DNA of 41,363 nucleotides from Anaerolineae bacterium (GCA_025062415.1 JANXAH010000035.1:1-41363); one strand, 5' to 3'; positions 1 to 27,089 are shown, counted from the first letter of the stretch. Made by a program: numbers and translations. Notes: a model not told the origin generated them from the sequence alone.

Positions 1-1104
1 TGGAGTCCCTGTGACGATGGGCACGGGGACGGGCGTCGGCGTCGGGGTGGAGGGAGGGAGAATCTGGCAGCGGGAGACCCCCCAGCCGCTCAGGACGAAG
101 ATGGCCAGGGCTGCGCCGCTGGCGACGGTGCGCCGGGCCCATGCCCCCCAGTCGGGGGGAACAGGCACCCGCTCCAGGGCCAGGCGCATCTCCCGGGCCG
201 AGGAAAAGCGCTGATCCGGGTCTTTTTCCAGGGCCCGCAGGACGATTTCCTCCAGCAGCGGCGGGATGGCCGGGCGAATCTGCCGGGGAGGCAGAGGCCG
301 ATACTGGGGGTCCACGATCAGTGCGATGTTCTCAAAGGGGAGCCGTCCCGTCAGCATCTCATAGAGGACGATACCCAGGGAGAAGAGATCGGTGCGGACA
401 TCCACCGGACGGCCCCGACGGGTCGTCTCCAGAGCCTGTTCGGGGGAGACGTATTCCGGGGTGGCAACGCCCAGGAGACCAAAGCGGGGATAGCGCAGGT
501 CCCGGGCGATGCCGAAGTCGCACAGGACAGCATGAGGGACACTGCTGCGCAGGTAGTTGAAGGAGCGCTTCCGGAAGAGGATGTTCCCCGGCTTGATATC
601 CAGGTTGATGACGAAACGCTCGTGGATGTGCTCCAGGGCAGAGACCAGTTGACGGGCGATCCCGACGGCTTCCAGCAGGTGCAGGGGGTGTTCCTCCCCG
701 TTGGCTGGAGGCCGCAGGATGTCGGTCAGCGTGGTGGGGCGGCAGAGGTGTTTCTGCAGCGAGCCTCCGGTCAGCAGTTCCATCGTGTAGTACCACCCTG
801 GGCCAAAGGGGAAGTCCCCGCGCGCAGCGTAGACGAACTTATGGTAGCCCAGAATCGGGTAAATGCGCACCACGTTGGGGTGGTCAAAGCGAGAGAGGTA
901 GTCGGCCTCGGCGACCAGGGCGGCCTGGTGTTCCGGCTTGGCGACCTTCATCGCCATCCGGATGGGGAACCCAGGGCGGCGGTACTTTTCCCGGACCTCC
1001 ACCTCAAAGACGCGCGCCATCCCGCCCCGCCCGCGGAAGCCCCGGACGATGCGGTAGGGGCCCACAACAGTTCCGGGAATAAGTTGGTCCAGTTCCTGGC
1101 TCAT
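1..1104 (-). CDS. Membrane-anchored Hanks-type Ser/Thr protein kinase (3' end truncated by window edge)
   Basis: Absent from the ORF track (no stop inside the window). Manual translation from ATG 1104 (MSQELDQLIPGTVVGPYRIVRGFRGRGGMARVFEV) gives a Gly-rich loop, MAMK lysine, catalytic loop INLDIKPGN, DFG, TPEYVSPEQ, TDLFSLGIVLYEMLTGRLPF, then a TM segment (SGAALAIFVLSGWGV) and a PT-rich stretch. GAGGA RBS follows the upstream stop. Confidence 0.92.
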   Translation of the reverse strand, partial: MSQELDQLIPGTVVGPYRIVRGFRGRGGMARVFEVEVREKYRRPGFPIRMAMKVAKPEHQAALVAEADYLSRFDHPNVVRIYPILGYHKFVYAARGDFPFGPGWYYTMELLTGGSLQKHLCRPTTLTDILRPPANGEEHPLHLLEAVGIARQLVSALEHIHERFVINLDIKPGNILFRKRSFNYLRSSVPHAVLCDFGIARDLRYPRFGLLGVATPEYVSPEQALETTRRGRPVDVRTDLFSLGIVLYEMLTGRLPFENIALIVDPQYRPLPPRQIRPAIPPLLEEIVLRALEKDPDQRFSSAREMRLALERVPVPPDWGAWARRTVASGAALAIFVLSGWGVSRCQILPPSTPTPTPVPVPIVTGTP

Positions 1105-1109
1105 ATCCT

Positions 1110-3170
1110 CTACGGCACCACTTTTCGGGTGGGCCCGCCAGTCTGTGGAGTTCCTGGAGAGGGGGGAGAGGCTGGCGGGGCTCCCGGGCTCGGGTAGGGG
1201 TGAGTGGGGGGAGCACCGGTAGACGGTGGGGGCATCGGGCCCGGATGGGGCGGAGATGGAGGCCCACCGGGGCCAGGCGGCGGAGGCACGACGCCGGGTT
1301 GCTGGATTTGCCGGGTCGTTCCGCCCACGCGCTTGAACTGCAGGCGGGTCATCCCTACCTCAATGATCGCATCCGGCTGAAGCAGGATGCGGGTGTGGGG
1401 CGGAATCGGCATCCCGTTGACCCGCGTCCCGTTTGTGCTCCCCTCGTCCACGATGTAGAACTGGGTCTGTTCCAGGTGGATGGAGAAGTGGGGATTGGAG
1501 ACGTACTCGTCGTAGAGGGCAAAGTCGCCGAACTGGGGGTCTCGGGCCACTTTGGTGACCGGTCCTGCGATAGGGATCTCCCGACCGGGGTTGGTGCCCT
1601 TGACGACCACCAGCCGGGCTACGGCAGGGGGTGTCGCCCCCAGGCGCCGGGTGACCCCTTTGAGAACTCCTGTCGTTCCAGTGACGATGCGCTGGGCCAG
1701 TTGGGAGCGGGTCCGCAGCAGCACCGCCAGCAGGACCAGCAGGCCCAGCAGCAGGGCAAACAGCAGCATAAGGATCCACCAGTACATCCCCAGCCAGAGC
1801 AGCGCGCGCCGGAGGAAGGGAAGGGGCTCCCAGGTGACCTGGATTCTCACCGGTTGGCTGGTGATGCGGACATCCAGATAAGGGTCGTCGGCCTCGGCCT
1901 GGAGGGTGTACTCCTGGCTGGGGGCATGCAGGGAGGGGCGGACCAGGGCTCCCAGGTCCCAGGTAAACTCAAAGGAGGGAGGGGTTCCTCCTCGGCCGAT
2001 CAATTCCCCATTGGCGTAGTAGCGGACTTCCGTCGGGGTTCGGAAGACGCCATCGGTGGGCGCCACGGCTACGCTGAGAAGCAAGGTGCCCGTATATTGG
2101 CCAGCGGAGTAGGGGACAGTGACCGTCATCCCTTCGGTAGGGGCGGTCAGCGTTAGGCGCAAGGGCTCCAGGATGGAGTCAAAGGCGACCGACCGTTCGG
2201 CGGAGCCCAGGTCGGTATTGACGGTCACGTTCAGCGTGTAGCGTCCTTTCGGCTGGCGGGTGCGGTAAGTCAACACGTACTGATTCCGCTGAGTCATCAA
2301 CCGGTCAAAGAGGGCCAGGACAGCCTGGCGGGTGGGTTCGTCCCGGTGAATCTGATAGGCGCCACCCGTCTGGCTTGCCAGGCGGATCAGGTTCCCCTCC
2401 GCGTCCCGGCTGAGAACCCCGCCCTGGGGAGCCATCCCGATGGCATAGAGGGAGATGCCCGACTCGTTGGCCTTCCGGATGATGTCTTCCTCCCGTGCCC
2501 GATTGCTGAAGTTGGGGTCAATCCCGTCGGAGAAGACGACAATGACTTTGCGCCGGTGGGCAAGAACGTCCCGGATAACGGCGTCGGGGTTCTCTCGCAG
2601 TAGCCGCAGGGCCTCGTCCAGCCCCTCGTAGAGAGGGGTACCGCCGCGAACCGTCTCTCCTTCCATCTCTACCAGCGCATTGAGGACCAGGTTGATATCC
2701 ACCGGATTATACGTGAAGTTCTCCTCCGGTTGGAGTTTCCCTCCTTCGCCGACGCCCACAATGGCGATCACGTCGTCCTCCGGCGCGCCGGTGACGCTGA
2801 GCCGGTTGACCAGTTCCCGCACCAGGTCGGTGGCCTGCCGGATGCGCGGGTCGCCACGAGCGGAGATGCCGCCCCGGTCCACCACCACCACGATCGCCAG
2901 TCCCACGGGCCGGTAGGCCACCTCGGCCAGCGGGACCGTCGCGCCCGATTCCTGAACCAGGAAGGCGTCGGCGCCGAGGCCCTCTATGCTCTGGGAGAGT
3001 TGGGGGTCCAGGACGGAGGCGTAGATGCGCACCTCTGGCGGCGAGGAGATCGCATCGGGGGGGTGAAGGATCAGCAGGGGGCCAGGGGCCTGAGCCCGGG
3101 TGGTTCCGAACATCCCTCCGAACAGGACGAGAAGGGCCACCAGCCAGAGGAAGGTCTTGTTCGCATTCAT
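1110..3170 (-). CDS. Signal peptide-VWA-Ig-like-TM-FHA domain protein with Pro-rich tail
   Basis: N-terminal signal peptide; VWA motifs VVVDRGGIS, GGTPLYEGL, VFSDG, LYAIG; Ig-like beta region; TM helix YWWILMLLFALLLGLLVLLAVLL; FHA motifs ARD, VSNPH, GSTNGT. Confidence 0.88.
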   Translation of the reverse strand: MNANKTFLWLVALLVLFGGMFGTTRAQAPGPLLILHPPDAISSPPEVRIYASVLDPQLSQSIEGLGADAFLVQESGATVPLAEVAYRPVGLAIVVVVDRGGISARGDPRIRQATDLVRELVNRLSVTGAPEDDVIAIVGVGEGGKLQPEENFTYNPVDINLVLNALVEMEGETVRGGTPLYEGLDEALRLLRENPDAVIRDVLAHRRKVIVVFSDGIDPNFSNRAREEDIIRKANESGISLYAIGMAPQGGVLSRDAEGNLIRLASQTGGAYQIHRDEPTRQAVLALFDRLMTQRNQYVLTYRTRQPKGRYTLNVTVNTDLGSAERSVAFDSILEPLRLTLTAPTEGMTVTVPYSAGQYTGTLLLSVAVAPTDGVFRTPTEVRYYANGELIGRGGTPPSFEFTWDLGALVRPSLHAPSQEYTLQAEADDPYLDVRITSQPVRIQVTWEPLPFLRRALLWLGMYWWILMLLFALLLGLLVLLAVLLRTRSQLAQRIVTGTTGVLKGVTRRLGATPPAVARLVVVKGTNPGREIPIAGPVTKVARDPQFGDFALYDEYVSNPHFSIHLEQTQFYIVDEGSTNGTRVNGMPIPPHTRILLQPDAIIEVGMTRLQFKRVGGTTRQIQQPGVVPPPPGPGGPPSPPHPGPMPPPSTGAPPTHPYPSPGAPPASPPSPGTPQTGGPTRKVVP

Positions 3171-3248
3171 CTCTGTCCTCCGAAGCAGGGGTGGGGCAGA
3201 ACGTTGCTGTGGAAGGAGACGTCAAGAGGCGCTGATAACTTTAAATGG

Positions 3249-3277
3249 ATTATACACCTTCGCCGATGCTTGTGCAA
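3249..3277 (-). promoter_or_regulatory. Sigma70-type promoter for the VWA-FHA/kinase genes
   Basis: Minus strand TTGCAC-N17-TATAAT, about 80 bp upstream of ATG 3170. Confidence 0.65.
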
Positions 3278-3315
3278 GTCGCACGGTGGCCAATTGCAAA
3301 TGGTCGTTCCATATA

Positions 3316-3392
3316 GCGGCCTCCATCAGCGGGTCGCAGGCTTCCTGAGGGGAGATGGGGGGCCACCAGATGTGCTGGATATGCCCGGCGGG
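3316..3392 (-). pseudogene. Degenerate duplicate of the 3' part of the adjacent PP2C gene
   Basis: 77-bp ungapped match to 3482-3558 with 15 mismatches by manual alignment; translates as PAGHIQHIWWPPISPQEACDPLMEAA versus PDEHIWHIWRTSTSPQEACDRLVEAA. Confidence 0.8.
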
Positions 3393-3413
3393 GCAACTGC
3401 TTGCAGTTGCCCC
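3390..3413. repeat. REP-like palindrome downstream of the PP2C gene
   Basis: Perfect 11-bp inverted repeat GGGGCAACTGC-TT-GCAGTTGCCCC, 10 bp past the stop codon. Confidence 0.7.
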
Positions 3414-3423
3414 ACCAACTCCT

Positions 3424-5178
3424 CTAACGTCCCACCTGAACGACGATGACGCTAATGTTATCCTCCCCTCCGGCACTGTTGGCCGCTTCCACCAGCCGGT
3501 CGCAAGCCTCCTGAGGGGAGGTGGAAGTCCGCCAGATGTGCCAGATATGCTCGTCGGGAACCATCCCGCTTAGCCCATCGCTGCAGAGCAGGAGGGCCTC
3601 GCCGGGCGCTAACCGGCGCTCAAAGAAATCCGCTTCCACCCGGGGCTTATCGCCAAGGGTGCGGTAGATAACATTTTTTTGAGGGTGGGTGGCGGCTTCT
3701 TCGCGGGTGATCTGGCCCGTGGCGACCAGGCGCTCCACCAGGGAGTGGTCCACGGTAATCTGCTCAATGCCGTCGGGACGGAGGTGGTAGGCCCGGCTGT
3801 CGCCAATGTTGGCAATAGTCGCCGCATCGCCCAGCATCAGCGCGACCACGAGGGTGGTGCCCATATCGGTTCCAGCGACCCGGCGCTGGTTGTAGATGGT
3901 CCAGTTGGCCTGCTGGATGACAGCAGAGAGCCACTCTCGGGGTGTGGGGAGGGGCTGTCCGGCCGCGTGGGGGGCCAGGATTTCGCCGCCGACCCGCTGA
4001 GCCAGGGTGCGGATCACTATCTGGCTGGCCACATCCCCTGCCTCGTGCCCGCCCATCCCGTCGGCGATGGCCGCAAGGGCGACGGGAATCCCCTGGGAGC
4101 GGAAGGCCATCACCGTCTGAAGGGCCAGCAGGCTATCTTCGTTGAGGGTCCGTTCCATTCCCACGTCGGTGCGGCAGCCCAGCGTCAGCGTGACGTGGGC
4201 GGGGCGACGCATCTGAGCCAGCCGTTCCTCCAGCATGGCGGCCACCTGACCAGCAGTGAGCGCTCCTGGGTTCGCCAGGACCCGGACAAGAACTTCCAGT
4301 TCCGGCGGGAATGGCCCTGGCCGTCGGAGGTCCCAGGCCCGGCCGGTCGCCAGGTACAGAAGGAGGGCGGCCATTCCAGCCAGGTCTCGGGCGAAATAGG
4401 CAGTGGCCCGGCTCTGCTCCGCAGCCGAAAGTACCTGGGCGTTCTCCAGGGAGAGCCAGAAGGCCCGATCTCCCTCCACACCGATCCGGCCCAGGTCCAT
4501 CTCGCCAAGCGTGATCCCTTGCCGGTGCAGGTGTTCCAGCGCGCGGGCCAGCGTGATTCCCCACTCCAGAACCCGAAGAGATTCTTGAGGAACGGGGAGG
4601 GAGGCAGCCAGCACAGGAAGGTGTTCCGTCTCCACAGCGTAGGCGCGAGGCGGGCCATAGGGGGCCTCGGTAAAGACCTCCCGGGGCAGGAAAAGGCCAG
4701 GATGGTCCACTCCGGCCTGGAGGAGGAGGGCCGGAACCACGAAGGCCCGCTCGTGCGCGCTCTCCCGCACCCGATAGCGCAGCAGAACGGGCGCTGCATC
4801 GGAGAGGTCGGCGCCGCAGGCGACGCAGAACCGTTCGTCCGGAGAGCGGACTTCCGCGCGACACTGGGGACACAGGCGGACGGGCTGCGTCTCTTCCACC
4901 AGGTACTCGTTCATTTGCTCCCCGGCTGCGCGCACCTCCAGCACCGCGTACTGCCCCTCCTTCAGCAGAGCCCCTTCCGGCAGGGGAGCGAAGGCGACGG
5001 GGGCGGGCAGAGGACGGGTAGGGACATCGGCAGTCTGGGCGTGGGATGACGTTGGGAGAAGAGGCTTTGTGGGCTGCCGGGAGGAGCGAATCCGGGAAGA
5101 GGCTTCCAGCGCTGCGCCGCAATTCTGGCAGAACCGCGCGCTGGGGCGGTTCTCCGCACCGCATCGGGAGCACCTCAT
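3424..5178 (-). CDS. Zinc ribbon + pseudokinase + PP2C (Stp1/PrpC-type) Ser/Thr phosphatase fusion
   Basis: Start placed at ATG 5178 (ATGA overlap with upstream stop, AGGAGG RBS). CxxC..FCxxCG ribbons; kinase-like region with HRD read as LGE and DFG as SLE; intact PP2C motifs TDVG-R-NEDS, ADGMGGH, MGTT, GDSRAY, DHS, CSDGL, GGEDN. Confidence 0.9.
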   Translation of the reverse strand: MRCSRCGAENRPSARFCQNCGAALEASSRIRSSRQPTKPLLPTSSHAQTADVPTRPLPAPVAFAPLPEGALLKEGQYAVLEVRAAGEQMNEYLVEETQPVRLCPQCRAEVRSPDERFCVACGADLSDAAPVLLRYRVRESAHERAFVVPALLLQAGVDHPGLFLPREVFTEAPYGPPRAYAVETEHLPVLAASLPVPQESLRVLEWGITLARALEHLHRQGITLGEMDLGRIGVEGDRAFWLSLENAQVLSAAEQSRATAYFARDLAGMAALLLYLATGRAWDLRRPGPFPPELEVLVRVLANPGALTAGQVAAMLEERLAQMRRPAHVTLTLGCRTDVGMERTLNEDSLLALQTVMAFRSQGIPVALAAIADGMGGHEAGDVASQIVIRTLAQRVGGEILAPHAAGQPLPTPREWLSAVIQQANWTIYNQRRVAGTDMGTTLVVALMLGDAATIANIGDSRAYHLRPDGIEQITVDHSLVERLVATGQITREEAATHPQKNVIYRTLGDKPRVEADFFERRLAPGEALLLCSDGLSGMVPDEHIWHIWRTSTSPQEACDRLVEAANSAGGEDNISVIVVQVGR

Positions 5179-5960
5179 GACACACCTCCTTCCCCGGTCC
5201 GAAAGATGAAGGTTACGCTGCCGATTTGGAGTTCCCAGCCATCCCGGAGTAGGTTGTGCCGGGTCCGGCGGCCGTTCACGTAGACGCCATTGGTGGAGCC
5301 CAGGTCTTCCACAGCCCAGTCGTTCCCCCGGCGGTAGAGGCGAGCGTGGCGGCGGGAGACAGTCTCCCATCCCGCGAACTCGGCGGTGATGACCAGATCG
5401 TTATCCGGCGCGCGCCCTATCGTCAGCGATTCCTTCTCCAAGGGCCAGCGAAAGCGCCGCCCGGCCAGGGTGGCCTCCAGCGAGGGTGGGGTGGGGGGAG
5501 TCGGGGGCAGGGGTCGGGTAGGCCTGCGGGGCCGGGGGCGCCTCCGGAACAGGGAGACCCCGATCAGAACCAGCAGCAGGAGGACCAGCAGCCCTGCGCA
5601 TCCCGCTCCGAACAGGGGCCAGTAGGGGACAAGCACTTGTATAATCCCTATCATCCCGGAGACGGTCGGGGTGGTCCCAGGCGTCGGCGAGGGTGTTGGG
5701 AGGAGCGGGACGGTCGGGGTAGGGGAGGGAGGGAGTTCGGTGGGGCTGGGGGAAGGGGATGGGGGAGTAGGAGAGGGCGTCTCGCTGGTCGGGGTCGCCG
5801 TTGGAGTGGGTTCCGGAGGGGGAGGGGGAGTGGCCGACGTGACTTCCGGCAACTGAAAGGTGGGCATCGGGGGTGGGGAGAACCCCACCACCAGCGCGAG
5901 GGAGGTCACGATGCCGAGGACCAGAAGAACCCGGAAAGCGGGAACACCGAAAGCGCTCAT
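5175..5960 (-). CDS. Membrane protein with Pro/Thr-rich ectodomain and C-terminal FHA domain
   Basis: Start placed at ATG 5960 (AGGAGG RBS). Signal/TM segment, PT-rich linker, second TM, then FHA motifs IGRAPDN, VSRRHA, GSTNG. Confidence 0.88.
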   Translation of the reverse strand: MSAFGVPAFRVLLVLGIVTSLALVVGFSPPPMPTFQLPEVTSATPPPPPEPTPTATPTSETPSPTPPSPSPSPTELPPSPTPTVPLLPTPSPTPGTTPTVSGMIGIIQVLVPYWPLFGAGCAGLLVLLLLVLIGVSLFRRRPRPRRPTRPLPPTPPTPPSLEATLAGRRFRWPLEKESLTIGRAPDNDLVITAEFAGWETVSRRHARLYRRGNDWAVEDLGSTNGVYVNGRRTRHNLLRDGWELQIGSVTFIFRTGEGGVS

Positions 5961-5986
5961 ACAGGCCTCCTGAGGAGAAACCTCGC

Positions 5987-6601
5987 TTACGGGGCGGCGT
6001 CCGTGAACACGCATCGGACCGCGCCAAAGCTGATCACATCGCCGGAGCGAAGGACATAGGGCTGATGCGGAGGGAGCATGGTGCCCCCCACGAACGTTCC
6101 GTTGCGGGAGGGGAGCGGGATCAGGACCCACCGGGTTCCCTGCTTGCGCAGCCGGGCATGGGTTCTGGAAACGGTCTCTCCGCCGGGCTGGGTAGAGAGG
6201 TCTATATCCGGCTGCTGTCCCCGTCGGGCATCCCCCCGGCCGACCAACAGTTCCGGCTTGCCCAGATGGTCCAGCAGAACCGGCTGGCCCGAGACAAACC
6301 GGAGGGAGGCCGAACCCCGAACGGGCCAACCGCTATGGTGAGACAACTGGAGGGAATACCGGATCAGTTCCAGCCGGTCTCCCATCTTCACCCCCAGTTC
6401 GTCCAGAGTCCGGCCGTCGGGAAAGGGCTGCCCTCTCCGGCCCAGGCGATACTCCACCAGCCAACCGGATACGGTGGTGGGAATCTGGAGGGCCTGGATC
6501 AGTGCCACCGTCAGATGCCGAACCGGCACATCTTCCGGGACTTCCAGGTCCCGGCTTCCCTGGAGGGGATCAGGGAGTTTCACCGTGATGACGACAGCCA
6601 T
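5987..6601 (-). CDS. EsaB/YukD-type ubiquitin-like domain fused to FHA domain
   Basis: N-terminal DLEVPEDVPVRHL..TLDELGVKMGDRLEL fits the YukD/EsaB pattern; C-terminal FHA motifs VGRGD, VSRTHA, SRNGT; adjacent to WXG100 and essC. Confidence 0.85.
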   Translation of the reverse strand: MAVVITVKLPDPLQGSRDLEVPEDVPVRHLTVALIQALQIPTTVSGWLVEYRLGRRGQPFPDGRTLDELGVKMGDRLELIRYSLQLSHHSGWPVRGSASLRFVSGQPVLLDHLGKPELLVGRGDARRGQQPDIDLSTQPGGETVSRTHARLRKQGTRWVLIPLPSRNGTFVGGTMLPPHQPYVLRSGDVISFGAVRCVFTDAAP

Positions 6602-6612
6602 ACCTGTTATAG

Positions 6613-6640
6613 AGTATACTCCTTACTGCCCGATTTGCAA
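6613..6640 (-). promoter_or_regulatory. Sigma70-type promoter for the yukD-FHA operon (near-leaderless)
   Basis: Minus strand TTGCAA-N16-TATACT; the -10 box ends 11 nt before ATG 6601. Confidence 0.55.
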
Positions 6641-6697
6641 ATTCTGGCTGTGTTGGTGAGGCATCGGCTCGCAGTTGTTCCCTTTCGGCTCCAGAAC

Positions 6698-6725
6698 TTG
6701 ACAATCGGCGGAAAGTCGCTATAAA
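6698..6725 (+). promoter_or_regulatory. Sigma70-type promoter for the WXG100 gene
   Basis: TTGACA-N16-TATAAA; strong AAGGAGG RBS before ATG 6805. Confidence 0.65.
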
Positions 6726-6804
6726 AGAAGGTAGGGCTTTTCTCCAGAACTTTGTCTGCCGCCCAGACTGTATCGTTCCCCCAGACTTTAGAAGGAGGAC
6801 TGCC

Positions 6805-7083
6805 ATGGTGGAGATCCGCGTATCCCCCGAGCGGCTTCGCAGTGTCGCCAGCCAGCTGGAGCAGAAACGGCAGGAGGCCGACCAGATTCTGGCGACCATG
6901 ATTCAGACGGTCAACAACCTCAGCGGCGAGTGGACCGGCCTGGCTCAGGTGGACTACGCCAACATCTTCAACGAACGGGTGCCCGCGATGAGGACTAACC
7001 TCAGCGAAGTGCTGGAGAACCTGATCCGGGCCCTGCGCCACATCGCCGACGAGTTTGAACGGGTGGACCAGACGGTCATCTAA
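6805..7083 (+). CDS. WXG100 family type VII secretion substrate (EsxA/YukE-like)
   Basis: 92 aa, N-terminal IRVSPERL, central W-T-G motif (SGEWTGLA), predicted helical hairpin, C-terminal FERVD resembling the YxxxD/E signal. Confidence 0.93.
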   Translation: MVEIRVSPERLRSVASQLEQKRQEADQILATMIQTVNNLSGEWTGLAQVDYANIFNERVPAMRTNLSEVLENLIRALRHIADEFERVDQTVI

Positions 7084-7094
7084 TGTAGCGACCA

Positions 7095-7130
7095 AACGTG
7101 CCAGGCGCTGCGGGAAGCGCCTGGCACGTT
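7095..7130. repeat. REP-like hairpin / probable bidirectional terminator between convergent WXG100 and essC genes
   Basis: Perfect 15-bp inverted repeat AACGTGCCAGGCGCT-N6-AGCGCCTGGCACGTT; related copy at 16718-16751. Confidence 0.75.
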
Positions 7131-7153
7131 CCCTGCCTTCCGCTTTTCGTTTC

Positions 7154-10100
7154 TTATTCTTCAGGCCAGGCCGCCGGGGGCACTCCCACCTGGGTCCAGT
7201 GGTCGCGGATTTCTGTTGCCCGGCGGGCGATGGTATTCGCGTCGCCCGCAAAGGCTACCTGCACCATCTCCTCCTGGCCGTGGCGGGCAAGGAACCCTCG
7301 CCCTGCTACCATCCGGGTCAGGTCTGAGGCCCGGACGCGAACCCCCAGGGGGTTCTGGTCTCCCGCCTCCAGGGGCCGCAGGACAAACCCCGATCGCCAC
7401 AGCCGCACCTGTCTGGGCAGCGGGTCGCTGTATCCCACTCCCAGGTTGGGCAGCGGGCCCGCAAGAATGATGTGGAAATGGACGTCCCGGCCCCGTCGGG
7501 ACAGCAGGTCCAGCCCCTGCTGGATATCTCTCTCCCCGCTGAGCGCGTTGGAGAAGTCATCGTAGTCGTCCCAAACGGCCACAATGCGGGGCAACTGGTT
7601 TCCAGCAGAGATATCCTCGGCGAAGAGAGCGTCCCGCCGGTGGATCTCCCGGATGATTCGGGCCATCGTTCCCTTTTGCTGGAAATCTCGGTAGGAGCGG
7701 GCGAACTCCAGAATGTGGGGGAGCCCGTCCAGGGGTTGGAGGCTGTTGCGGCGCCCGGAGATCAGGATGAACTGGACCTCCTGAGGCGAGTAGAGCGTCG
7801 CCAGGGCCAGCATCCAGGCCATCAGCAGACTCGTCTTTCCGCTCTGGGGGGTACCGGTGACCACGAAATCGGGGCCGTCCTCCACCAAATCTATCCACGT
7901 GGGGCGCAACCGGATGCTCTCCACACCGATGGGCACAGCCAAAGCCGAACCGGCTGGCCGCCCTCCGGCACGGGCCAGTAGATTGTCCAGGGGGAGCAAT
8001 TCCGGCATCGTCGCCACCGGCTCGGGCAGAGGGCCCTTCCAGGCCCGGCGCATCTCCGTGGCCAGTTGGCGCAGTTCCTTCGCTTGGGCCTCCTCGTCCT
8101 CCTCGTACCCGGGAGAAGCGGTCTGAAACTCCAGCGGGGGACGACCGTACCAGCCCCGGCCCGGGGGCATTGGGTCGTCCTTCCCCATCCGGGGACGCTG
8201 TCCCAGGATCAGGGAATACTCGTCCGGGTCCCCCAGGCGCAAAACCGCCCGACGGGCCACAACGCTGCTGATGGCCGCAGGGATCTCCCCAGGCCGGTCT
8301 CCCACCATCACCACGTGGATGTCGTAGTTTCCCCCCTCCCGCACCAGCCGAAGCAGGGTGCTGTATTCCTCCGGGAACTGCTGACGAAAGTCGCCGAACC
8401 CAGTTACCACCACCACCAGGGCCGGCGGCACATCGCCCGGCCTTTGCTGGCGCAACTGGCTCAGCCGGTCCACGTGAGCCCGATGGCAGAGTTCTATGCG
8501 GGCCTCCAGTTCGTCCTCCAGGCGGACCCAGGCCCGCCGGATCCGCTCCTCGTCCATCGGAGTGAAGACGCCCACCACGTGGGGCAGCGGTTCCAGAACT
8601 CGCAGCGCCTGCCCGCCAAAGTCCACCAGGTAGAAATGGACCTCCTCCGGGGTGTGGGTCCGGGCAAGGCTGACGACCAGAGTGCGCAGCCACATCTCTT
8701 TGCCCGAAGCGGGAGCCCCGATCACCAGCAGGTGTCCGTCCTGGTCTCCCAGGTCCAGCCGCCAGGGCTCCTGTCGCTGATGGGCAGGGTCGTCCAGCAG
8801 GCCCAGGAGGGCCCGTAGCCAGGGGCGGTTGGGGAGGTCGGGGGCGCGCGGGGTGGGGGAGTCCGGCGGGGATAGGCTCTTCCCGCAGGACGCACAGAAG
8901 CGGGCTCCGATCCGAACGGCTCCCTGGCAGTGCGGGCAGCGGAGCGTCACAGGAGCCCCACAGCGGCCGCAGAAGCGGGCCCCTGGTCGGAGTGAGGCCC
9001 CACACTGACCGCAGAAGTGAGGCGGGCGGAGGCGGGGAAAGGGCTCAAACCACCACCCCTCTCCGTCCCATCCAGCCAGCCCCTCCTGTTTCAGTAGCTT
9101 GGGAAGGGGGATATGCGCCGGCAGTGGTTCCGGCCAGGGGCTGGAAAGTTTCTTCAGCCCCATGCGCCTGGCTATGGCGGCCAGGTGCTGGGTCACCACC
9201 TCCAGGTCCGTCCGAGCGGTTCCGGACTTCTGCTGGGGGAGAAACTTGCGGGAATCGTAGAGTTCTCGCCGTTCCCCTGTCGCCGTGACCTCCCGGATCA
9301 CGATGCGCTCGGTCGGCTGGCCGATCAGGGTGTCGGTATCTCCGGCAGCCCGATAGGTGCTGGCCACCCGTGCGACCTGAAAGAGTTCAAAGACCTCGTT
9401 ATCCCCCACCTGCAGGTAACCCCGACCCGGCATCCGGGGAAGGTAGGCGGCATCCGGTCGGCGAAGCATATCCTGGCTTTCCGCCGTATCCTCCACCCGC
9501 AGGCAGATACGAAAGCGGGAGTTGGCCCAGATTTGCTGGCTCACCTTCCCCCGCGGGCTCTGAGTCGCCAGGATCAGGTGGATCCCCAGCGACCGGCCGA
9601 CCCGGGCCACCCGGACCAGGCCGTCCATAAACTCCGGGTAGTCGGTGACCAGTTCCGCAAACTCGTCCACGATGATGACCACTCGGGGAAGGGGCTCCAT
9701 GCCCTGACCCTGTCGCTGCCAGTAAAGTTCCTGATAGCGGGCAATATCGTTGACGTTGAACTGGTTGAACAAATGTTCTCTGCGCTTGATCTCCGCCTCC
9801 AGTGCCACCAGGGCCCGCTCGGCCAGGTTGCCGCTGATATTGGTCACCAGCCCCAGGACGTGGGGAAGAGGGGCCAGAGGAGAAAACGCGCCGCCGCCCT
9901 TGAAGTCCACCAGAATGAAGCCCAGGTCGTGGGGATGGTGGCTCAGGGCCAGGCTGATCACCAAGGTCTGGAGCAGTTCGCTTTTGCCGGAGCCTGTAGT
10001 CCCGGCGATCAGTCCATGGGGGCCGTGACCGGTGTGGCTTAAGTCCAGCACCAGCGGCTGGCCGCCCTTTCGGACCCCCAGCACTGCCTTCAGCAGGCGG

Positions 10101-11461
10101 TCCGGGGCCCGCCGGGTCCACGCAGCCTGTGCATCGTACTGCTGGATATCCCGGATTCCCAGGACCTCCAGCAAGCGGATGCTGGAGGGAAGGGCTACCG
10201 CACTCTCCGGGGAGAAGACTCGCAGAGGCGCCAGAGCTCGGGCCAGACTCTCGCTCCAGAGGGGATCCACCTGATCGGGTGTACCAAAGAGGGGCGGGGC
10301 CGCCACACCCACCATCTGGATCATGACGGAGGCGGAAGACGAGACCTCCGCCACATACGCGCATCCCTGAGGCAGCCGGGACAGGTGGTCGGCCAGAAAA
10401 ATCGCCGTCGCGTTCAAATGTCGCCCTTCTGCCAGGAGCAGGTGGAGCGCCGGGTGATGCAGGTCCAACCGGTCGTCCTCCACCAGAAGGACCAGCCAGG
10501 GCCAGTCCGGCGGAGCACTGTCGGCGCGGCGGGAGGAGAGCCGATTCTTCCGCTCGCTCAGTTCGTCCAGCAGCCGGTGCAGCAGTTCCTGGGCAGAAGC
10601 GGCGTCGCAGGCCAGGTGGGGAAAGCGGACGTTCCCGTCCAGGACGTGGGTGTGAGGAAGCCACTTGAGCCACTCCCATTCTGGAACCCGCTGGGGGGAG
10701 TAGATGGCCAGCAGGTGGGCTTCGTCGGGAACGTGGTGGACGACCAGACTGGCGATAAGGGCCCGGGCCAGGCCATTGCGTAGGGGGAGGCTGCCAGTGA
10801 TCCCCAGCGGTCCGGCCCGCAGGTTCACCGTAAGGGGAACATCGGGCACCTGCTGGTACTCCGATTCCAGGTTCAGCACAGGCTGGTAGCGGGGGTCCGA
10901 GATCTCCGGGCGAGGTGCAGAAACTTTCACCGAAGAGGGAAGAGTGCCCACACCAATGCGAAGGCTCAGGAAATCCTCGTCGGTGGGGCGTCGCTCCCAG
11001 AGGCGGCGGTCCCGGTTCTGAGCCCGGATCAGCAGAATGTGGGGGTCCGGGTCCTTCTCCGTCCGAATGTGCTGTTGCCGGACCCGGAGTTGGTGGAGAT
11101 GCTGGGCGTATTGCTGGAGGGCCTGCTGGTAGGCCTGCTCTTTGGCCTCCTGTTCTCTCCGGTGTTGACGGCGCTGAGATTGAGTCCCCAGGATGCCTCC
11201 CAGGGCCGACATAATGGACATCGCCAGCATCCCCGCCGAGGCAAGATACTGCATCTTTCCCGGGCCATGGTCGCTGGCCAGGCCGCTGGCGAGTAGATAG
11301 ACGCCCACCATCAGCAGTACACCGGCCACCGGCAGGAGGGTGGTGTACCAGCTGAACCAGGGAGGCGGAGTAAGGGACGGAGGAGGTGGGAGTTTGACCT
11401 CTCCTGAGGGCAGCGGCTCCAGAATGCGCGGGGGACGGTTAAAATCTATCGTGGCGCTCAT
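7154..11461 (-). CDS. essC: Type VII secretion FtsK/SpoIIIE ATPase (EssC/EccC) with inserted double zinc ribbon
   Basis: Start placed at ATG 11461 (AAGGAG RBS, MSATIDFNRPPR). Two TM helices, LWERRPTDEDFL DUF region, HGPHGLIAGTTGSGKSE with IVDEFAEL (ATPase 1), GAPASGKE (ATPase 2), GTPQSGKT (ATPase 3). Confidence 0.93.
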   Translation of the reverse strand: MSATIDFNRPPRILEPLPSGEVKLPPPPSLTPPPWFSWYTTLLPVAGVLLMVGVYLLASGLASDHGPGKMQYLASAGMLAMSIMSALGGILGTQSQRRQHRREQEAKEQAYQQALQQYAQHLHQLRVRQQHIRTEKDPDPHILLIRAQNRDRRLWERRPTDEDFLSLRIGVGTLPSSVKVSAPRPEISDPRYQPVLNLESEYQQVPDVPLTVNLRAGPLGITGSLPLRNGLARALIASLVVHHVPDEAHLLAIYSPQRVPEWEWLKWLPHTHVLDGNVRFPHLACDAASAQELLHRLLDELSERKNRLSSRRADSAPPDWPWLVLLVEDDRLDLHHPALHLLLAEGRHLNATAIFLADHLSRLPQGCAYVAEVSSSASVMIQMVGVAAPPLFGTPDQVDPLWSESLARALAPLRVFSPESAVALPSSIRLLEVLGIRDIQQYDAQAAWTRRAPDRLLKAVLGVRKGGQPLVLDLSHTGHGPHGLIAGTTGSGKSELLQTLVISLALSHHPHDLGFILVDFKGGGAFSPLAPLPHVLGLVTNISGNLAERALVALEAEIKRREHLFNQFNVNDIARYQELYWQRQGQGMEPLPRVVIIVDEFAELVTDYPEFMDGLVRVARVGRSLGIHLILATQSPRGKVSQQIWANSRFRICLRVEDTAESQDMLRRPDAAYLPRMPGRGYLQVGDNEVFELFQVARVASTYRAAGDTDTLIGQPTERIVIREVTATGERRELYDSRKFLPQQKSGTARTDLEVVTQHLAAIARRMGLKKLSSPWPEPLPAHIPLPKLLKQEGLAGWDGEGWWFEPFPRLRPPHFCGQCGASLRPGARFCGRCGAPVTLRCPHCQGAVRIGARFCASCGKSLSPPDSPTPRAPDLPNRPWLRALLGLLDDPAHQRQEPWRLDLGDQDGHLLVIGAPASGKEMWLRTLVVSLARTHTPEEVHFYLVDFGGQALRVLEPLPHVVGVFTPMDEERIRRAWVRLEDELEARIELCHRAHVDRLSQLRQQRPGDVPPALVVVVTGFGDFRQQFPEEYSTLLRLVREGGNYDIHVVMVGDRPGEIPAAISSVVARRAVLRLGDPDEYSLILGQRPRMGKDDPMPPGRGWYGRPPLEFQTASPGYEEDEEAQAKELRQLATEMRRAWKGPLPEPVATMPELLPLDNLLARAGGRPAGSALAVPIGVESIRLRPTWIDLVEDGPDFVVTGTPQSGKTSLLMAWMLALATLYSPQEVQFILISGRRNSLQPLDGLPHILEFARSYRDFQQKGTMARIIREIHRRDALFAEDISAGNQLPRIVAVWDDYDDFSNALSGERDIQQGLDLLSRRGRDVHFHIILAGPLPNLGVGYSDPLPRQVRLWRSGFVLRPLEAGDQNPLGVRVRASDLTRMVAGRGFLARHGQEEMVQVAFAGDANTIARRATEIRDHWTQVGVPPAAWPEE

Positions 11462-11756: not shown

Positions 11757-12740
11757 ATGACCGATGTGACCCTCCGGGATGCCCTACAGAAGTTCCTGGA
11801 CGAGATCGCGGCCAGCCGCAGCCCCAACACCCACAAGGCCTACCGCCAGGCCGCGGCCCGCTTCGCCGAGGTTCTCTCCGCCCATGGCATCTCCCCTGCC
11901 CTGACCCCCGTCTCCGACCTCTCCGTAGAATGGATGGGCTGGTACATCCAGGACCTCCACAACGCCTCCGTCGCCACTGAACAACTGTACATCACCGCCC
12001 TCCGGGCCTTCTACGAGTACGCGGCCGCGCAGGAATGGGCCTCGGTCAACCTGCCCGCCCTGCATCGCCTCTGCCGCCGACGGGCCCGCCGGGAGGCAGC
12101 GCGACTGCCACCGTTTCCTCGCGCTGAAATAGAGAAAATTTTGGAGACCGTCGCCCAGGCCGCCGCTGCCCCACCCCAAGACGAGCGGAAACTCCTGCGA
12201 ATTTTAAGAGACCGTGCTCTACTTTATGTCCTGGCCGACACGGGCCTGCGGGTCTCCGAGGCCTGCTCCCTGACCCGCGGGCATATGGATTGGACGGAAG
12301 CGCGGGCGCGCGTCCTGGGAAAAGGCGGACGGGAGTCCATCGTCCGCTTCTCCGAACGGAGCCTTCGCTACCTGCGGGCCTACCTGGACGCCCGTGCCGA
12401 ACTGGACGGACGCCAGGGCCGTCCCCTGACCAGTTTGCCCCTCTTTGCCCGCCACGACCGGAGGGCCGGGAAACGGGTGCTCCCCCTCTCCGCCCGCTCC
12501 GCCGAGAAGGTCGTTGAGGAATGGGTTGTACGGGCGCTGGGCGAAAGAGCCCGCGGGACCATCACCCCCCACACCTTCCGTCATTATTTTGTGACCGTGG
12601 TCCTGCGGGGCAGCGGCGGCAACGTCCGGCTGGCCCAGGAACTGGCCCGCCACCGCAGCATCACCACCACCCAGCGCTATACCCACTTAAGCGACGACGA
12701 ACTGGACCGGGGATACCACGAGATTTTCAACGAAATGTAG
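11757..12740 (+). CDS. XerC/XerD-family tyrosine recombinase
   Basis: 327 aa; N-terminal SAM-like region (SPNTHKAYR); catalytic motifs DTGLRVSE, GKG, HTFRH, ARH and QRYTH. Confidence 0.93.
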   Translation: MTDVTLRDALQKFLDEIAASRSPNTHKAYRQAAARFAEVLSAHGISPALTPVSDLSVEWMGWYIQDLHNASVATEQLYITALRAFYEYAAAQEWASVNLPALHRLCRRRARREAARLPPFPRAEIEKILETVAQAAAAPPQDERKLLRILRDRALLYVLADTGLRVSEACSLTRGHMDWTEARARVLGKGGRESIVRFSERSLRYLRAYLDARAELDGRQGRPLTSLPLFARHDRRAGKRVLPLSARSAEKVVEEWVVRALGERARGTITPHTFRHYFVTVVLRGSGGNVRLAQELARHRSITTTQRYTHLSDDELDRGYHEIFNEM

Positions 12741-13505: not shown

Positions 13506-14558
13506 ATGGATACTGTTCGCCTGCTGAAACAACTTTCGGAGACTCCAGGGCTCCCTGGGCACGAGGAGCCGGTACGGGCCCTCGTCCGGGAACTGTGGGC
13601 CCCACTGGTAGATGAACTGCAGACCGATGGGCTCGGCAGTCTGATCGGTCGCCGATACGGAAGTGGCCCGGAACCTCGCCCGGCCCTGATGTTTGCCGCC
13701 CATATGGACGAAATTGGCCTGCGGGTGACCGGCATAGAGAAGGGCTTTTTGCGCGTGACCCGCGTGGGTGGGGCCGACCGCCGTATCTTGCCGGGCACAG
13801 AGGTCGTCGTCCACGGCCGGCGCGACCTTCCCGGCGTCGTCGGTATGCCCCCGCCCCACGTGATCCCCCCTGACCAACGGAATAAGACGCTCCCCTGGGA
13901 GGAACTGTTCGTGGACGTGGGACTGCCAGAGGAAGAGGTGAAGGCTCTCGTCCAGGTGGGAGACCCCATCTCCTTTCGGCGGGAGGCCGTGGAACTGAAG
14001 AACGGCCTGTTTTCCGGTAAGGCCCTGGACAATCGGGTCTCTGTGGCGGTGGTAACTCTGGCCCTGGAGCATCTCTTCCGCCTCTCCCATGCCTGGGATA
14101 TTGTCGCCGTAGCGACTGTGCAGGAGGAGGTGGGGCTCTATGGGGCTGCCACCGCGGCCTACGGCGTCGCTCCCGATATGGCTGTCGCCGTGGACGTGAC
14201 CTTTGGACGACAGGCCGGGGTCTCCAACCATCTGACTTTCCCCCTGGGTGAGGGCATCGCCATCGGCGTCGGCCCTAACTTCCACCCGGCGGTCGTGGAG
14301 CGGTTGAAGAAGACCGCCGAGGCTAACGAAATTCCCTACCACATAGACCCCATTCCGGGCCGCAGCGGCACCGACGCCTGGGCCATCCAGGTCAGCCGCG
14401 AGGGGATTCCCACTGGTCTGGTCTCCATCCCGCTCCGCTATATGCACCAGCCGGTGGAGATCGTTTCGGTGAAGGACGTGGACCGGGCCGGGCGACTGCT
14501 CGCTCTCCTCGCCGCCGGACTGGAGCCCGACTTCCGGCCCCGCTGGGAGGACGAGTAA
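13506..14558 (+). CDS. M42 (TET/FrvX) family aminopeptidase 1
   Basis: AAHMDEIG, KALDNR, QEEVG, VDVT, GTDA, YMH motifs. Confidence 0.93.
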   Translation: MDTVRLLKQLSETPGLPGHEEPVRALVRELWAPLVDELQTDGLGSLIGRRYGSGPEPRPALMFAAHMDEIGLRVTGIEKGFLRVTRVGGADRRILPGTEVVVHGRRDLPGVVGMPPPHVIPPDQRNKTLPWEELFVDVGLPEEEVKALVQVGDPISFRREAVELKNGLFSGKALDNRVSVAVVTLALEHLFRLSHAWDIVAVATVQEEVGLYGAATAAYGVAPDMAVAVDVTFGRQAGVSNHLTFPLGEGIAIGVGPNFHPAVVERLKKTAEANEIPYHIDPIPGRSGTDAWAIQVSREGIPTGLVSIPLRYMHQPVEIVSVKDVDRAGRLLALLAAGLEPDFRPRWEDE

Positions 14559-14625
14559 GGGGTAAGCGGCCTCCGTACTACCGCCGACCACTTGATTGAA
14601 CAAAGAAGCCTGAGGTGAGCGAACT

Positions 14626-15660
14626 GTGGAACTCCTGAAGGAACTCTCTGAAGCCTTTGGCCCTTCTGGCTATGAGAAGGAGGTCCGGCAGGTTTTGCGC
14701 CGGACCTTGGAGGGATACGCCGACCGGATGTGGGTGGACGCGCTGGGGAACCTCCACGTCGTCCGGGAGGGGACGGCCCCGGAGCGCCTCCGGGTCTTGC
14801 TGGCGGCCCATATGGACGAGATCGGCCTGATGGTCGTGGGGCACGACGAATCCGGCGGGCTGCGGGTGAAGGCCATCGGCGGGATAGACGACCGGGTCCT
14901 GCCCGGCACCCAGGTCTGGGTGGGGCCCGACCGAATTCCCGGCGTCATCGGCCTCAAGCCCGTTCACCTGCTGGAGGAAGGGGAGGACGAGAGAGTCGTT
15001 AAAATAGAACAATTACTGGTGGACATCGGGGCGAAGGGGAAAGAGGAGGCTCAACGGTTGGCGCCTCTGGGAACCCCGATGGTCTTTGCCACCCGGTTTG
15101 AGTCCCTGGGTACGCTGGTCAAGGGGAAGTCCTTTGACGATCGGGCCGGATGCGCGGTGTTGGCGGAATTGGTGCGCGGCGACCGTCTGCCCCACGACCT
15201 GCACGCCGTCTTCACTGTACAGGAGGAGGTGGGGTTGCGGGGCGCGCGCGTGGCCGCCTACGCGGCCCGGCCCGACTGTGCCTTCGCACTGGAGGGAACC
15301 ATCGCCAACGACCTGCCCAAGAAGAAGGACGTCAGCCCGACTTCCGAACTGGGAAAGGGGCCGGCCATCACGGTGATGGACCGGACCTTCATCGCCCATC
15401 GGGGGCTGGTCCGCCTGCTGATGGAAACGGCGGAGACGCTGAATATCCCCTATCAGGTCAAGCAGCCGGGGATCGGCGGCACCGACTCCGGCGCGATCCA
15501 CCTGGCCCGCGAGGGCATCCCCTGTGGCACTGTTGCCGTCCCCTGCCGCTACATCCACAGTCCCGTCAGCCTGCTCTCCCCGAAGGACCTGGAAAACACG
15601 GTCTGGCTGATGCGGGAGAGCCTGGCCCGGCTGACGCGCAAAACTCTGGAATTCTCCTGA
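14626..15660 (+). CDS. M42 family aminopeptidase 2
   Basis: GTG start; AAHMDEIG, KSFDDR, QEEVG, LEGT, GTDS, YIHSP motifs. Confidence 0.93.
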   Translation: MELLKELSEAFGPSGYEKEVRQVLRRTLEGYADRMWVDALGNLHVVREGTAPERLRVLLAAHMDEIGLMVVGHDESGGLRVKAIGGIDDRVLPGTQVWVGPDRIPGVIGLKPVHLLEEGEDERVVKIEQLLVDIGAKGKEEAQRLAPLGTPMVFATRFESLGTLVKGKSFDDRAGCAVLAELVRGDRLPHDLHAVFTVQEEVGLRGARVAAYAARPDCAFALEGTIANDLPKKKDVSPTSELGKGPAITVMDRTFIAHRGLVRLLMETAETLNIPYQVKQPGIGGTDSGAIHLAREGIPCGTVAVPCRYIHSPVSLLSPKDLENTVWLMRESLARLTRKTLEFS

Positions 15661-15729
15661 TTCCCGTCGGACTAAAGGAGGTTTTAGCACATTATCGCCA
15701 TCCTGGCAATCCTTTCCGGAAGGAGACCT

Positions 15730-23571: not shown

Positions 23572-24141
23572 ATGCCGCTTTCTCCCGATGACCGCCGGTT
23601 TTTGCTTTCCCTGGCCCGTCGGGCTATCGCCAGTATGTTGGAGAGCGGGGAACTTCCCGAAATAGACCTGAACGCTGTTTCGGAGGACCTGCGCCGTCCG
23701 GGGGCGTCCTTTGTGACCCTGACCATAGGGGGAGAACTGCGGGGATGCATCGGCTCTATAGAGGCCCGTCGTCCTCTTGTGCTGGACGTCCGGGAGAACG
23801 CAATTGCGGCGGCATTTCACGACCCTCGCTTTCCTCCGCTGAGTCGCCAGGAACTGGACCGAACACACATAGAGATTTCCGTGTTGACCCCACCCCAGCC
23901 TCTGGGATATACCGACTACTTAGACCTGTTGACCAAGCTTCGGCCTGGGGTGGATGGAGTTATCATAGAGCGGGGCTGGCATCGGGCGACCTTTCTGCCC
24001 CAGGTTTGGGAGAAGTTGCCTGATCCTCGCGAATTCCTGGCCCACCTTTGCCTGAAGGCGGGCCTTCCTCCCGACGACTACCGCCGACCCGGTTTGCGGG
24101 TGTATACTTATCAGGTGGAGAGTTTTAAAGAAAAGCACTAA
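23572..24141 (+). CDS. amrA: AmmeMemoRadiSam system protein A (AMMECR1 family)
   Basis: ASFVTL, LRGCIG, DPRFPP, EISVL, ATFLPQVW, LCLKAG. Confidence 0.93.
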   Translation: MPLSPDDRRFLLSLARRAIASMLESGELPEIDLNAVSEDLRRPGASFVTLTIGGELRGCIGSIEARRPLVLDVRENAIAAAFHDPRFPPLSRQELDRTHIEISVLTPPQPLGYTDYLDLLTKLRPGVDGVIIERGWHRATFLPQVWEKLPDPREFLAHLCLKAGLPPDDYRRPGLRVYTYQVESFKEKH

Positions 24142-24160
24142 CATAGCGTGTGAGGTGTCT

Positions 24161-27066: not shown

Positions 27067-27089
27067 AAGCCCGGCGGCTTGGTTTGCAT

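Follow-up and report, generated by a model that had tools for sequence, protein, structure and literature searches.

A minimal type VII secretion locus in an Anaerolineae genome, likely coupled to a reversible Ser/Thr phosphorylation module

We analyzed a stretch of 41,363 nucleotides from an Anaerolineae bacterium (GCA_025062415.1, JANXAH010000035.1:1-41363; hereafter the window), whose first 11,461 positions carry genes of a type VII secretion system (T7SS) together with genes of Ser/Thr phosphorylation signaling. The window is the entire contig C106 of a metagenome-assembled genome (MAG) of 2.70 Mb that is divided into 264 contigs and 93% complete. By open reading frame (ORF) calls and Pfam matches, seven genes fill positions 1-11461, six on the minus strand and the WXG100 gene alone on the plus strand (Table 1). 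A sequence-only reading of this DNA had listed essC/eccC, WXG100, a YukD domain, three FHA proteins, a PP2C phosphatase, a kinase and a VWA protein, and Pfam finds each of them. The same reading held several of the genes to be translationally coupled, for which we find tight spacing in two pairs: the stop of the Pro/Thr-rich FHA gene overlaps the PP2C start by 4 bases (ATGA), and the VWA-FHA stop is separated from the kinase start by a 5-base gap. Because this 7-kb block holds 3 of the 12 FHA, 1 of the 5 PP2C and 1 of the 4 VWA ORFs of the whole 2.70-Mb genome, the clustering of signaling genes beside essC is not due to chance in this genome.

Table 1. Features of the window and of the second WXG locus in the same genome (positions are those of the window unless another contig is named)
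Feature	Position	Strand	Evidence or remark
Ser/Thr protein kinase	1..1104	-	Pfam Pkinase E 5.5e-30; C-terminus cut by contig end
VWA-(Ig-like)-membrane segment-FHA protein, 686 aa	1110..3170	-	Pfam VWA E 2e-08, FHA E 5e-11
Zinc ribbon-(zinc ribbon)-pseudokinase-PP2C phosphatase, 584 aa	3424..5178	-	Pfam Zn_Ribbon_1, DZR, PP2C_2 (E 3e-14), PP2C; putative pseudokinase from structure model
Hydrophobic segment-Pro/Thr-rich stretch-membrane segment-FHA protein, 261 aa	5175..5960	-	Pfam FHA E 1.4e-18
YukD-FHA fusion, 204 aa	5987..6601	-	Pfam YukD E 6.2e-10, FHA E 6.3e-18
WXG100 (EsxA-like) protein, 92 aa	6805..7083	+	Pfam WXG100 E 1.7e-14
EssC/EccC-type ATPase, 1435 aa	7154..11461	-	Pfam FtsK_SpoIIIE, 3 stretches, E 1.6e-90
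Double zinc-ribbon insert of EssC	8882..9013	-	Pfam DZR E 8.2e-11, residues 873-916 of 1491-aa frame
Tyrosine recombinase gene adjoining essC	11757..12740	+	Pfam
Three tandem M42 aminopeptidase paralogues, after recombinase	13506..16710	+	Pfam
WXG100 gene	C247, 15341-15589	+	second WXG locus
WXG100-headed Rhs protein, 1426 aa	C247, 15608-19888	+	second WXG locus

The general features of a T7SS are all found here, namely a membrane-bound EssC with tandem FtsK/SpoIIIE domains, an adjacent WXG100 gene and YukD, the last as a fusion to FHA. EssC, whose start at 11461 agrees with an alignment of 11 orthologues, has two membrane segments (residues 36-64 and 73-91) followed by a domain-of-unknown-function (DUF) region and three FtsK/SpoIIIE ATPase domains, and it aligns over its full length with EssC/EccC homologues of named Bacillota and Actinomycetota. 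Here and below, hydrophobic segments were called by hydropathy at a threshold of 1.6, on which the topologies rest. No FHA domain was matched by Pfam in the EssC frame. The WXG100 gene, which encodes a W-T-G turn, is convergent with essC at a distance of 77 bp, and in relatives pairs of WXG genes lie 25-192 bp from essC. FtsK/SpoIIIE domains are common to DNA translocases and a recombinase gene is adjacent, so the ATPase might instead serve DNA translocation or conjugation, with WXG100 and YukD incidental and no protein secreted. We consider this highly improbable given the two membrane segments, the three tandem ATPase domains and the full-length EssC/EccC alignment, the close spacing of WXG genes to essC, the WXG100-headed hydrolases found in relatives (one with an inhibitor gene, described below) and the presence of separate, shorter FtsK genes in the same genomes.

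The double zinc ribbon of EssC sits between ATPase domains 1 and 2. Among its orthologues (genomes, contigs, loci and families carry our G, C, L and f numbers), those of G006 and G031 match straight across the insert, and six others break at query positions 804-809 and resume at 871-883. Such modules recur in the EssC insert, in the phosphatase, in the kinases of contig C247 and in an FHA protein of G021, and they could be a shared docking module of the signaling network. As a separate observation, several Chloroflexota genomes (for example G464:C91, G594:C5 and G754:C1) contain open frames that reach ~2,900-3,000 aa, double the length of EssC, and in which FtsK/EssC-like ATPase domains are repeated.

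The kinase retains the Lys of AMKVAK, the Asp of LDIKPGN and DFG on reading its sequence, which we take to be its catalytic motifs. Its visible 368 aa include a weakly hydrophobic segment and then a Pro/Thr-rich tail; because the orthologues of G025 and G031 (60-65% identity) have ~431-434 aa as stop-to-stop frames, ~60 aa appear to be missing at the contig end. This protein had been called a membrane kinase, and while the kinase assignment stands by Pfam, its hydrophobic stretch (residues ~327-345) stays under the hydropathy threshold, so that membrane attachment is probable. The VWA-FHA protein has hydrophobic segments at residues 3-26 (N-terminal and signal-like) and 455-492 and a Pro-rich C-terminal tail, with its VWA domain predicted outside the cell and its FHA domain inside; its Ig-like region gives a weak Pfam match to Big_7 (E 0.0017), below the cut-off. 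The Pro/Thr-rich FHA protein has hydrophobic segments at residues 1-32 and 109-142. All three FHA domains of the locus retain G-R, S-x-x-H and N-G, presumably the phosphothreonine-binding residues.

The phosphatase combines zinc ribbons, a PP2C domain and a middle domain of 240 residues that was modeled at a mean predicted local distance difference test (pLDDT) of 88. Its PP2C domain retains DGMGGH, GDSR and DN, which we assume to be the PP2C catalytic motifs, again as read from the sequence. For the middle domain, all 45 of the Foldseek PDB matches listed are protein kinases or pseudokinases (TMq 0.52-0.61), and a profile search of the PDB gave weak kinase matches, mostly at E 0.02-0.2 and at best 2.2e-05, at the catalytic-loop helix. 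Because of these kinase-fold matches, and because no catalytic Lys or Asp is conserved in it among 11 orthologues, the structure model identifies this domain as a pseudokinase, fused to an apparently intact PP2C. We also considered the pseudokinase as an EssB homologue and rejected this, as EssB/YukC is absent among the 45 Foldseek rows listed and generic kinases appear instead. In a genus-mate, the zinc-ribbon-pseudokinase gene (G010:C62:15931-16766) is split, has an in-frame TGA and looks like part of a decaying cassette, the term we use for the group of membrane FHA, zinc-ribbon-pseudokinase-PP2C, VWA-FHA and kinase genes.

Gene fusions are, at the level of predicted domains, the strongest evidence for a link between the T7SS and signaling. 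The YukD-FHA protein of the window is the only YukD match in the genome. Its fusion is confirmed by Pfam in the window and in G253, G391, G272 and G294, and the G006 protein is 70% identical to that of the window over its full length; the six YukD-FHA genomes span five families (f1, f5, f49, f38 and f53). Among 30 database relatives from a collection of 5.8 billion proteins, 26 carry both YukD and FHA, in identity groups of 63-100% and 42-46%. A second kind of fusion was found in another Anaerolineae family, where EssC of G183 (L155, contig C24, 5123-10321, minus strand) ends in a Pfam Pkinase domain at residues 1467-1717 of 1733, with genes for YukD, another kinase and a papain-like peptidase with a WXG head nearby; we did not find EssC-kinase fusions mentioned in the literature examined. 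Two genomes of another Chloroflexota class (G554 and G690) have an FHA domain within the EssC frame by a home-made hidden Markov model (HMM). Different lineages seem to fuse YukD differently: in G023 (L038, contig C158, 16650-17702, plus strand) YukD is followed by ~270 residues with a glycine-rich P-loop-like motif, of which Pfam recognizes YukD only and which by eye resemble ParA/MinD/CpaE ATPases.

A modeled complex of EssC residues 100-760 with YukD-FHA, which the sequence-only reading had proposed as a check, scored 0.77 versus 0.00 for the best of three controls. Of the 80 solved complexes used for calibration, 58 reach the mark, as do 2 of 110 mismatched pairs, a guide that is rough here with custom-made alignments. 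The runs have at least 68% of contacts in common, with a partner pLDDT of at least 82, and YukD-FHA is placed against EssC residues 718-742 (the hairpin after ATPase-1) and 266-274/408-412 (the DUF region). In Bacillus subtilis, YukD contacts the YukB DUF and the hairpin at 918-931, according to the sections used here of Oka et al. 2025 (PMC12637312). Because a similar complex has thus already been solved, the result may show likeness to solved complexes, which is not proof of binding.

Profile searches of the 93%-complete genome did not recover the accessory components of either canonical T7SS. YukC/EssB (PF10140), EssA (PF10661) and EsaA (TIGR03929) gave no match at E<=0.1, with B. subtilis controls positive; EccB (PF05108) and EccD (PF19053) gave no match, and EccE (PF11203) gave only sub-threshold matches with E of at least 0.046. 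Family-search controls were positive where expected in B. subtilis or Corynebacterium glutamicum. The earlier observation that none of these six proteins is recognizable in the window therefore extends to the genome-wide search.

To score neighborhoods in relatives, we recorded whether a kinase, FHA or PP2C domain lay no more than 6 kb from the EssC frame. EssC-type matches were present in 53 of 401 Anaerolineae genomes and in 72 of 401 Chloroflexota genomes sampled. Signaling domains were found near essC at 25 of 39 Anaerolineae loci (36 genomes), at 19 of the 26 Anaerolineae loci that have at least 8 kb of total flank and at 11 of 20 loci of other Chloroflexota classes, or 36 of 59 Chloroflexota loci overall. 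With the same HMMs, the background was 8.9% of 20,000 random 16.3-kb windows of this genome, and the same scan found no kinase, FHA or PP2C domain beside T7SSb-type loci of Bacillus and Streptococcus. The domain HMMs were home-made from 1-10 seeds; Pfam spot checks showed nothing missed, but the models are less sensitive, so YukD counts are lower bounds. The architectures beside essC vary and include receptor-type kinase-FHA proteins with TSP3 repeats, trios of FHA, kinase and PP2C genes, and VWA-FHA proteins. Because they differ between loci, the survey speaks for repeated recruitment of signaling genes and not for one inherited accident.

Taken with the fusions, this recurrence favors the reading that the window holds a minimal T7SS (WXG100) locus, with a core of EssC, one WXG100 protein and a YukD domain, whose function is tied to a reversible Ser/Thr phosphorylation module. 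We give this reading a probability of about 0.62, and regard the coupling between secretion and Ser/Thr signaling as likely (about 0.6). The sequence-only reading went further and had secretion switched by threonine phosphorylation; recurrence, fusions and intact motifs make the coupling likely, and gating through YukD-FHA itself is inferred.

Several points weigh against this reading. Kinship among the genomes makes their loci non-independent, and a single genome supplied the background rate; short contigs are common and part of the kinase gene is missing; and the complex score is the model's own confidence, for a pair of which a similar complex is already solved. The cassette of the window adjoins essC in only 2 of the 40 nearest genomes, G006 of the same genus and G021 of another. 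Cassette and essC lie on separate contigs in G016 and G022, and G001, G018, G020 and G023 have window-type EssC without a cassette orthologue. In G018, G020, G023 and G016, the available essC flanks contain no kinase, FHA or PP2C domain, despite the same EssC type, WXG pairs and effectors. In the 401-genome Anaerolineae sample, 35 genomes have the pseudokinase module, 53 an EssC-type match and 7 both, leaving 28 of the 35 module genomes without an EssC match at E<=1e-60, and four cassette loci (L150, L151, L156 and L157 of G186, G504, G215 and G207) have no EssC, WXG or YukD gene in 20 kb.

Of the 40 nearest genomes, 10 encode window-type EssC (at least 50% identity), 10 encode a full-length orthologue of the zinc-ribbon-pseudokinase-PP2C protein, and 6 encode both proteins. 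A strict pairing of cassette and essC is ruled out by the cassette in genomes without an EssC match and by essC without the cassette. Because most genomes with the pseudokinase module gave no EssC match (7 of 35 have both), the cassette is, as judged from its genomic distribution, a wider signaling module and not a dedicated T7SS part. The expectation that kinase, PP2C and FHA genes are conserved beside essC in relatives is thus borne out for signaling genes in general (36 of 59 loci) but not for this specific cassette (2 of 40). Short contigs and essC at contig ends limit these counts. Among essC contigs of relatives, 10 of 20 are shorter than 10 kb and essC is often at the contig end, so these loci seem hard to assemble, perhaps through strain variation in effector genes.

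The same distribution would be expected if the cassette were a general Anaerolineae envelope or stress module beside which a mobile T7SS island had landed, exerting no control of secretion. The many module genomes without EssC, the cassette loci without T7SS genes and the essC loci without the cassette all fit such independent neighbors, as do the tyrosine recombinase directly beside essC, the frequent location of EssC loci at contig ends and an effector content that differs between genomes. We nevertheless judge this unlikely, as mere neighbors would not account for the joining of FHA to YukD, a T7SS-specific domain, in six genomes from five families, for the EssC-kinase fusion of G183, for varied kinase and FHA architectures at 36 of 59 essC loci against a background of 9%, or for G294, where the cassette stands between essC and a group of WXG, effector and YukD-FHA genes. 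The only other WXG locus in the window's genome also lies amid such genes (L004, contig C247, 66-19888, plus strand): two zinc-ribbon kinases, a VWA protein, two kinases, two proteins without a Pfam family and an FHA-FHA-ABC transporter follow one another on one strand, and then come the WXG genes.

Coupling could also run through transcription. In Actinomycetales, the Esr pathway of vWA, kinase, phosphatase and FHA proteins was shown by experiment to control Esx (Wang et al. 2026 preprint, PMC13622651, this and the following statements from parts of its text); Esx induction by Esr is transcriptional, and Esr2 acts post-translationally on a subset of substrates. By analogy with Esr1, the VWA protein would sense an attacker or epibiont and the kinase would signal through an FHA output to broad transcription, with the T7SS as one target and no direct gating. 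The transcriptional induction by Esr and the wide occurrence of the cassette without essC are consistent with a threat sensor of this kind, and Esr FHA outputs are often fused to zinc-finger domains, a trait to set beside the zinc ribbons here on the phosphatase, on EssC and on the C247 kinases. Pfam, in contrast, finds no DNA-binding output domain in the seven window genes and no MoxR ATPase, beta-propeller filament or transglutaminase in the locus, the FHA domain is fused to structural YukD and modeled onto EssC, which favors post-translational action, and Esr is effectively confined to the class Actinomycetes (PMC13622651); we regard this alternative as decidedly unlikely.

Under the favored reading of direct coupling, the YukD half of YukD-FHA would bind EssC at its DUF region and at the hairpin that follows ATPase-1, in the manner of YukD and YukB of Bacillus subtilis, and the FHA half would read phosphothreonine written by the membrane kinase. 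This phosphothreonine could sit on the kinase, on EssC, or on either membrane FHA protein, within a Pro/Thr-rich cytoplasmic linker or tail. Phosphorylation might then recruit or release membrane partners and so switch the assembly or activity of EssC, and the pseudokinase-PP2C protein would reset the switch. The extracytoplasmic VWA/Ig and Pro/Thr-rich segments would be the likely input side, and the sensor or scaffold roles that the sequence-only reading gave to the two membrane FHA proteins are putative.

By analogy with the solved T7SSb core, its triad of YukD, FHA and (pseudo)kinase appears here in a catalytically live and differently fused form. A bolder version, which we hold only tentatively and think doubtful, has an active kinase in the place of EssB and a phosphothreonine-competent FHA domain on YukD instead of on EssC, with the kinase, the Pro/Thr-rich-FHA and the VWA-FHA proteins as sole membrane partners of EssC that structurally replace EssB/EsaA/EssA or EccB/D/E, and with assembly phospho-switched by a surface cue. 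If true, this live counterpart would suggest how the T7SSb pseudokinase-FHA contact arose.

As to cargo, the likely set comprises WXG100 and WXG100-headed toxins, judging from predicted domains, among them the Rhs protein of contig C247 in the window's own genome. WXG100-headed proteins beside essC in relatives (L036, L038, L039, L040, L035, L154 and L155) are cell-wall hydrolases and cysteine proteases, and the effector domains comprise CHAP, M23 peptidase, phage-type lysozyme, C39/C70 papain-like peptidases and a glycine-zipper protein. Three relative genomes encode a WXG100-headed calpain-like C2 protease, and in G020 a WXG100-headed lysozyme is followed by an LprI lysozyme-inhibitor gene. 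This set suggests an antibacterial role, in interbacterial antagonism or defense. Anaerolineae are abundant in sediments and reactors.

We placed EssC in an unrooted tree (IQ-TREE quick, LG+G4, 46 hand-picked rows of 89, 1269 columns) and compared it with FastTree on 84 rows, omitting partial or duplicate frames (L045-L048, L065-L067, L069, L090 and L139). The window EssC falls in a 9-row Anaerolineae clade with an SH-like approximate likelihood-ratio test (SH-aLRT) support of 100, which lies within a 15-row split also supported at 100. That split further contains Streptomyces, Curtobacterium, Actinomyces, an Actinomycetota MAG, one Chloroflexota row from an unpublished genome and one row labeled Bacteroidetes, and the remaining 31 rows, including every named Bacillota row and T7SSb, are on the opposite side; FastTree agrees with the split. 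A second EssC lineage in the window's genus (L042, L043 and L044; G002 and G003) has 41-42% identity to the window EssC and groups with the Bacillota MAG044 (L068), which suggests either two independent T7SS acquisitions or transfer between phyla.

Two Paenibacillaceae loci (L145 and L146), which have YukD, EssC without FHA, WXG and a weak PP2C_2 match (E 0.0011) and are possibly T7SSc-like, also fall on the opposite side of the main split. Two further candidates for a T7SSc reference were discarded: Paenibacillus aceti (L070), whose DUF5050 and Tad genes fit T7SSg, and P. silagei (L078), which is Tad-adjacent and fits T7SSh.

The surroundings of the locus were annotated up to ~16.7 kb of the window. 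The recombinase and the M42 paralogues to the right indicate that the locus ends at essC. The window spans its contig from end to end, so its left edge, where the kinase is cut, marks a break in the assembly. In G025, G031 and G294 the kinase gene is followed by a gene whose orthologues match best, in the present genome, at the end of contig C113, and synteny with these three genomes indicates that a second PP2C and another kinase probably lie beyond the left edge; the earlier suggestion that the locus runs past this edge is to that extent probable, the edge itself being a product of assembly. No tRNA gene was found in the window. At ~24000-30000, the G+C content is 0.56-0.59, versus 0.61-0.70 elsewhere in the window, and this segment may be an acquired island.

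T7SS knowledge rests on Actinomycetota and Bacillota, and Chloroflexota offer a third phylum in which phosphorylation gating can be tested. Their EssC genes usually occur with kinase and FHA genes and without a known accessory membrane subunit, the natural YukD-FHA and EssC-kinase fusions point to contact sites, and the effector set, with M23, CHAP, lysozyme beside an LprI inhibitor gene, calpain-like and papain-like proteases and Rhs, seems directed against the cell wall. WXG100 sequences or predicted ESX systems have been remarked on in Chloroflexota (PMC10765036 and PMC4010439, in the sections used here), and we found no description of Chloroflexota T7SS architecture in the literature searched, with the supplementary tables of PMC11217815 and PMC13622651 outside the search. 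Chloroflexota are unnamed in the main text of PMC11217815, whose supplementary neighborhood tables might list cases. A T7SS linked to phospho-signaling has been known since 2024 in other phyla, and the Chloroflexota case was not found in the literature searched. Garrett, Higginson and Palmer 2024 (PMC11217815, from parts of its text) report frequent kinases, PPM phosphatases, FHA proteins and vWA proteins in T7SSc-j of Bacillota and Actinomycetota, suggest that threonine phosphorylation regulates these systems, and compare them in this respect with the type VI secretion system (T6SS). Thus, of the earlier proposal of a distinct T7SS subtype, the genome-wide lack of matches to the six canonical T7SSa and T7SSb membrane components stands, but the concept is already present in that paper and in PMC13622651.

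In the T6SS, the membrane kinase PpkA, the PP2C phosphatase PppA and an FHA protein gate assembly of the secretion machine post-translationally. The machinery is unrelated and belongs to diderm bacteria, so the resemblance is an analogy only. With T7SSa (ESX), the locus shares an EccC-like architecture (no FHA, two membrane segments), a grouping with Actinomycetota and WXG100 pairs in relatives, but the genome searches yielded no EccB, EccD or EccE, and YukD is here a soluble fusion protein and not the N-terminal domain of a polytopic EccD.

As in the YukB-YukC-YukD core of T7SSb, a ubiquitin-like YukD, FHA and a kinase-fold membrane protein would meet on EssC, and the YukD interface modeled on EssC, at the DUF region and the hairpin after ATPase-1, is paralleled by the solved one described in the portions used of PMC12637312. 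The kinase fold of T7SSb (EssB) is dead, whereas the kinase here keeps its catalytic residues. T7SSb FHA domains are part of EssC and are without phosphothreonine-binding residues (PMC11217815, same sections), whereas FHA is here on YukD and keeps them; searches of the genome turned up no EssB, EssA or EsaA.

Esr shares with the window a vWA protein, Ser/Thr kinase(s), a phosphatase and an FHA protein beside esx genes, and both pair a pseudo-enzyme with a signaling domain: pseudophosphatase-FHA in Esr, by the parts of PMC13622651 used here, and the putative pseudokinase-PP2C in the window. According to the same text, Esr adjoins esx genes in 40% of 3502 cases and some of its FHA outputs form one protein with the secretion ATPase EccC. 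FHA is here fused to YukD instead, and the seven locus proteins have no Pfam match to a MoxR-type AAA, a beta-propeller (Ig-filament sensor) or a transglutaminase.

T7SSc (TscA-G) likewise has WXG100, a YukD-like protein and EssC without an N-terminal FHA (TscC), as well as a Ser/Thr kinase with a conserved active site (TscD, a membrane protein of EssB-like topology), a vWA protein and a PPM/PP2C phosphatase (TscF), and for both systems the rest of the genome gave no accessory component of T7SSa or T7SSb. The window differs in belonging to another phylum, with its EssC falling with Actinomycetota sequences, and in its YukD fused to FHA and three FHA proteins, none of which is given for T7SSc in the sections used of PMC11217815. 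The TscE vWA protein is predicted to be cytoplasmic, whereas the VWA domain here is probably extracytoplasmic by hydropathy and is fused to FHA, and the phosphatase here bears zinc ribbons and a putative pseudokinase. There is no candidate for the EspG-like TscG among the seven locus genes, which are all otherwise assigned, with no fold search elsewhere. By parts list, T7SSc is the known system that the locus most closely resembles.

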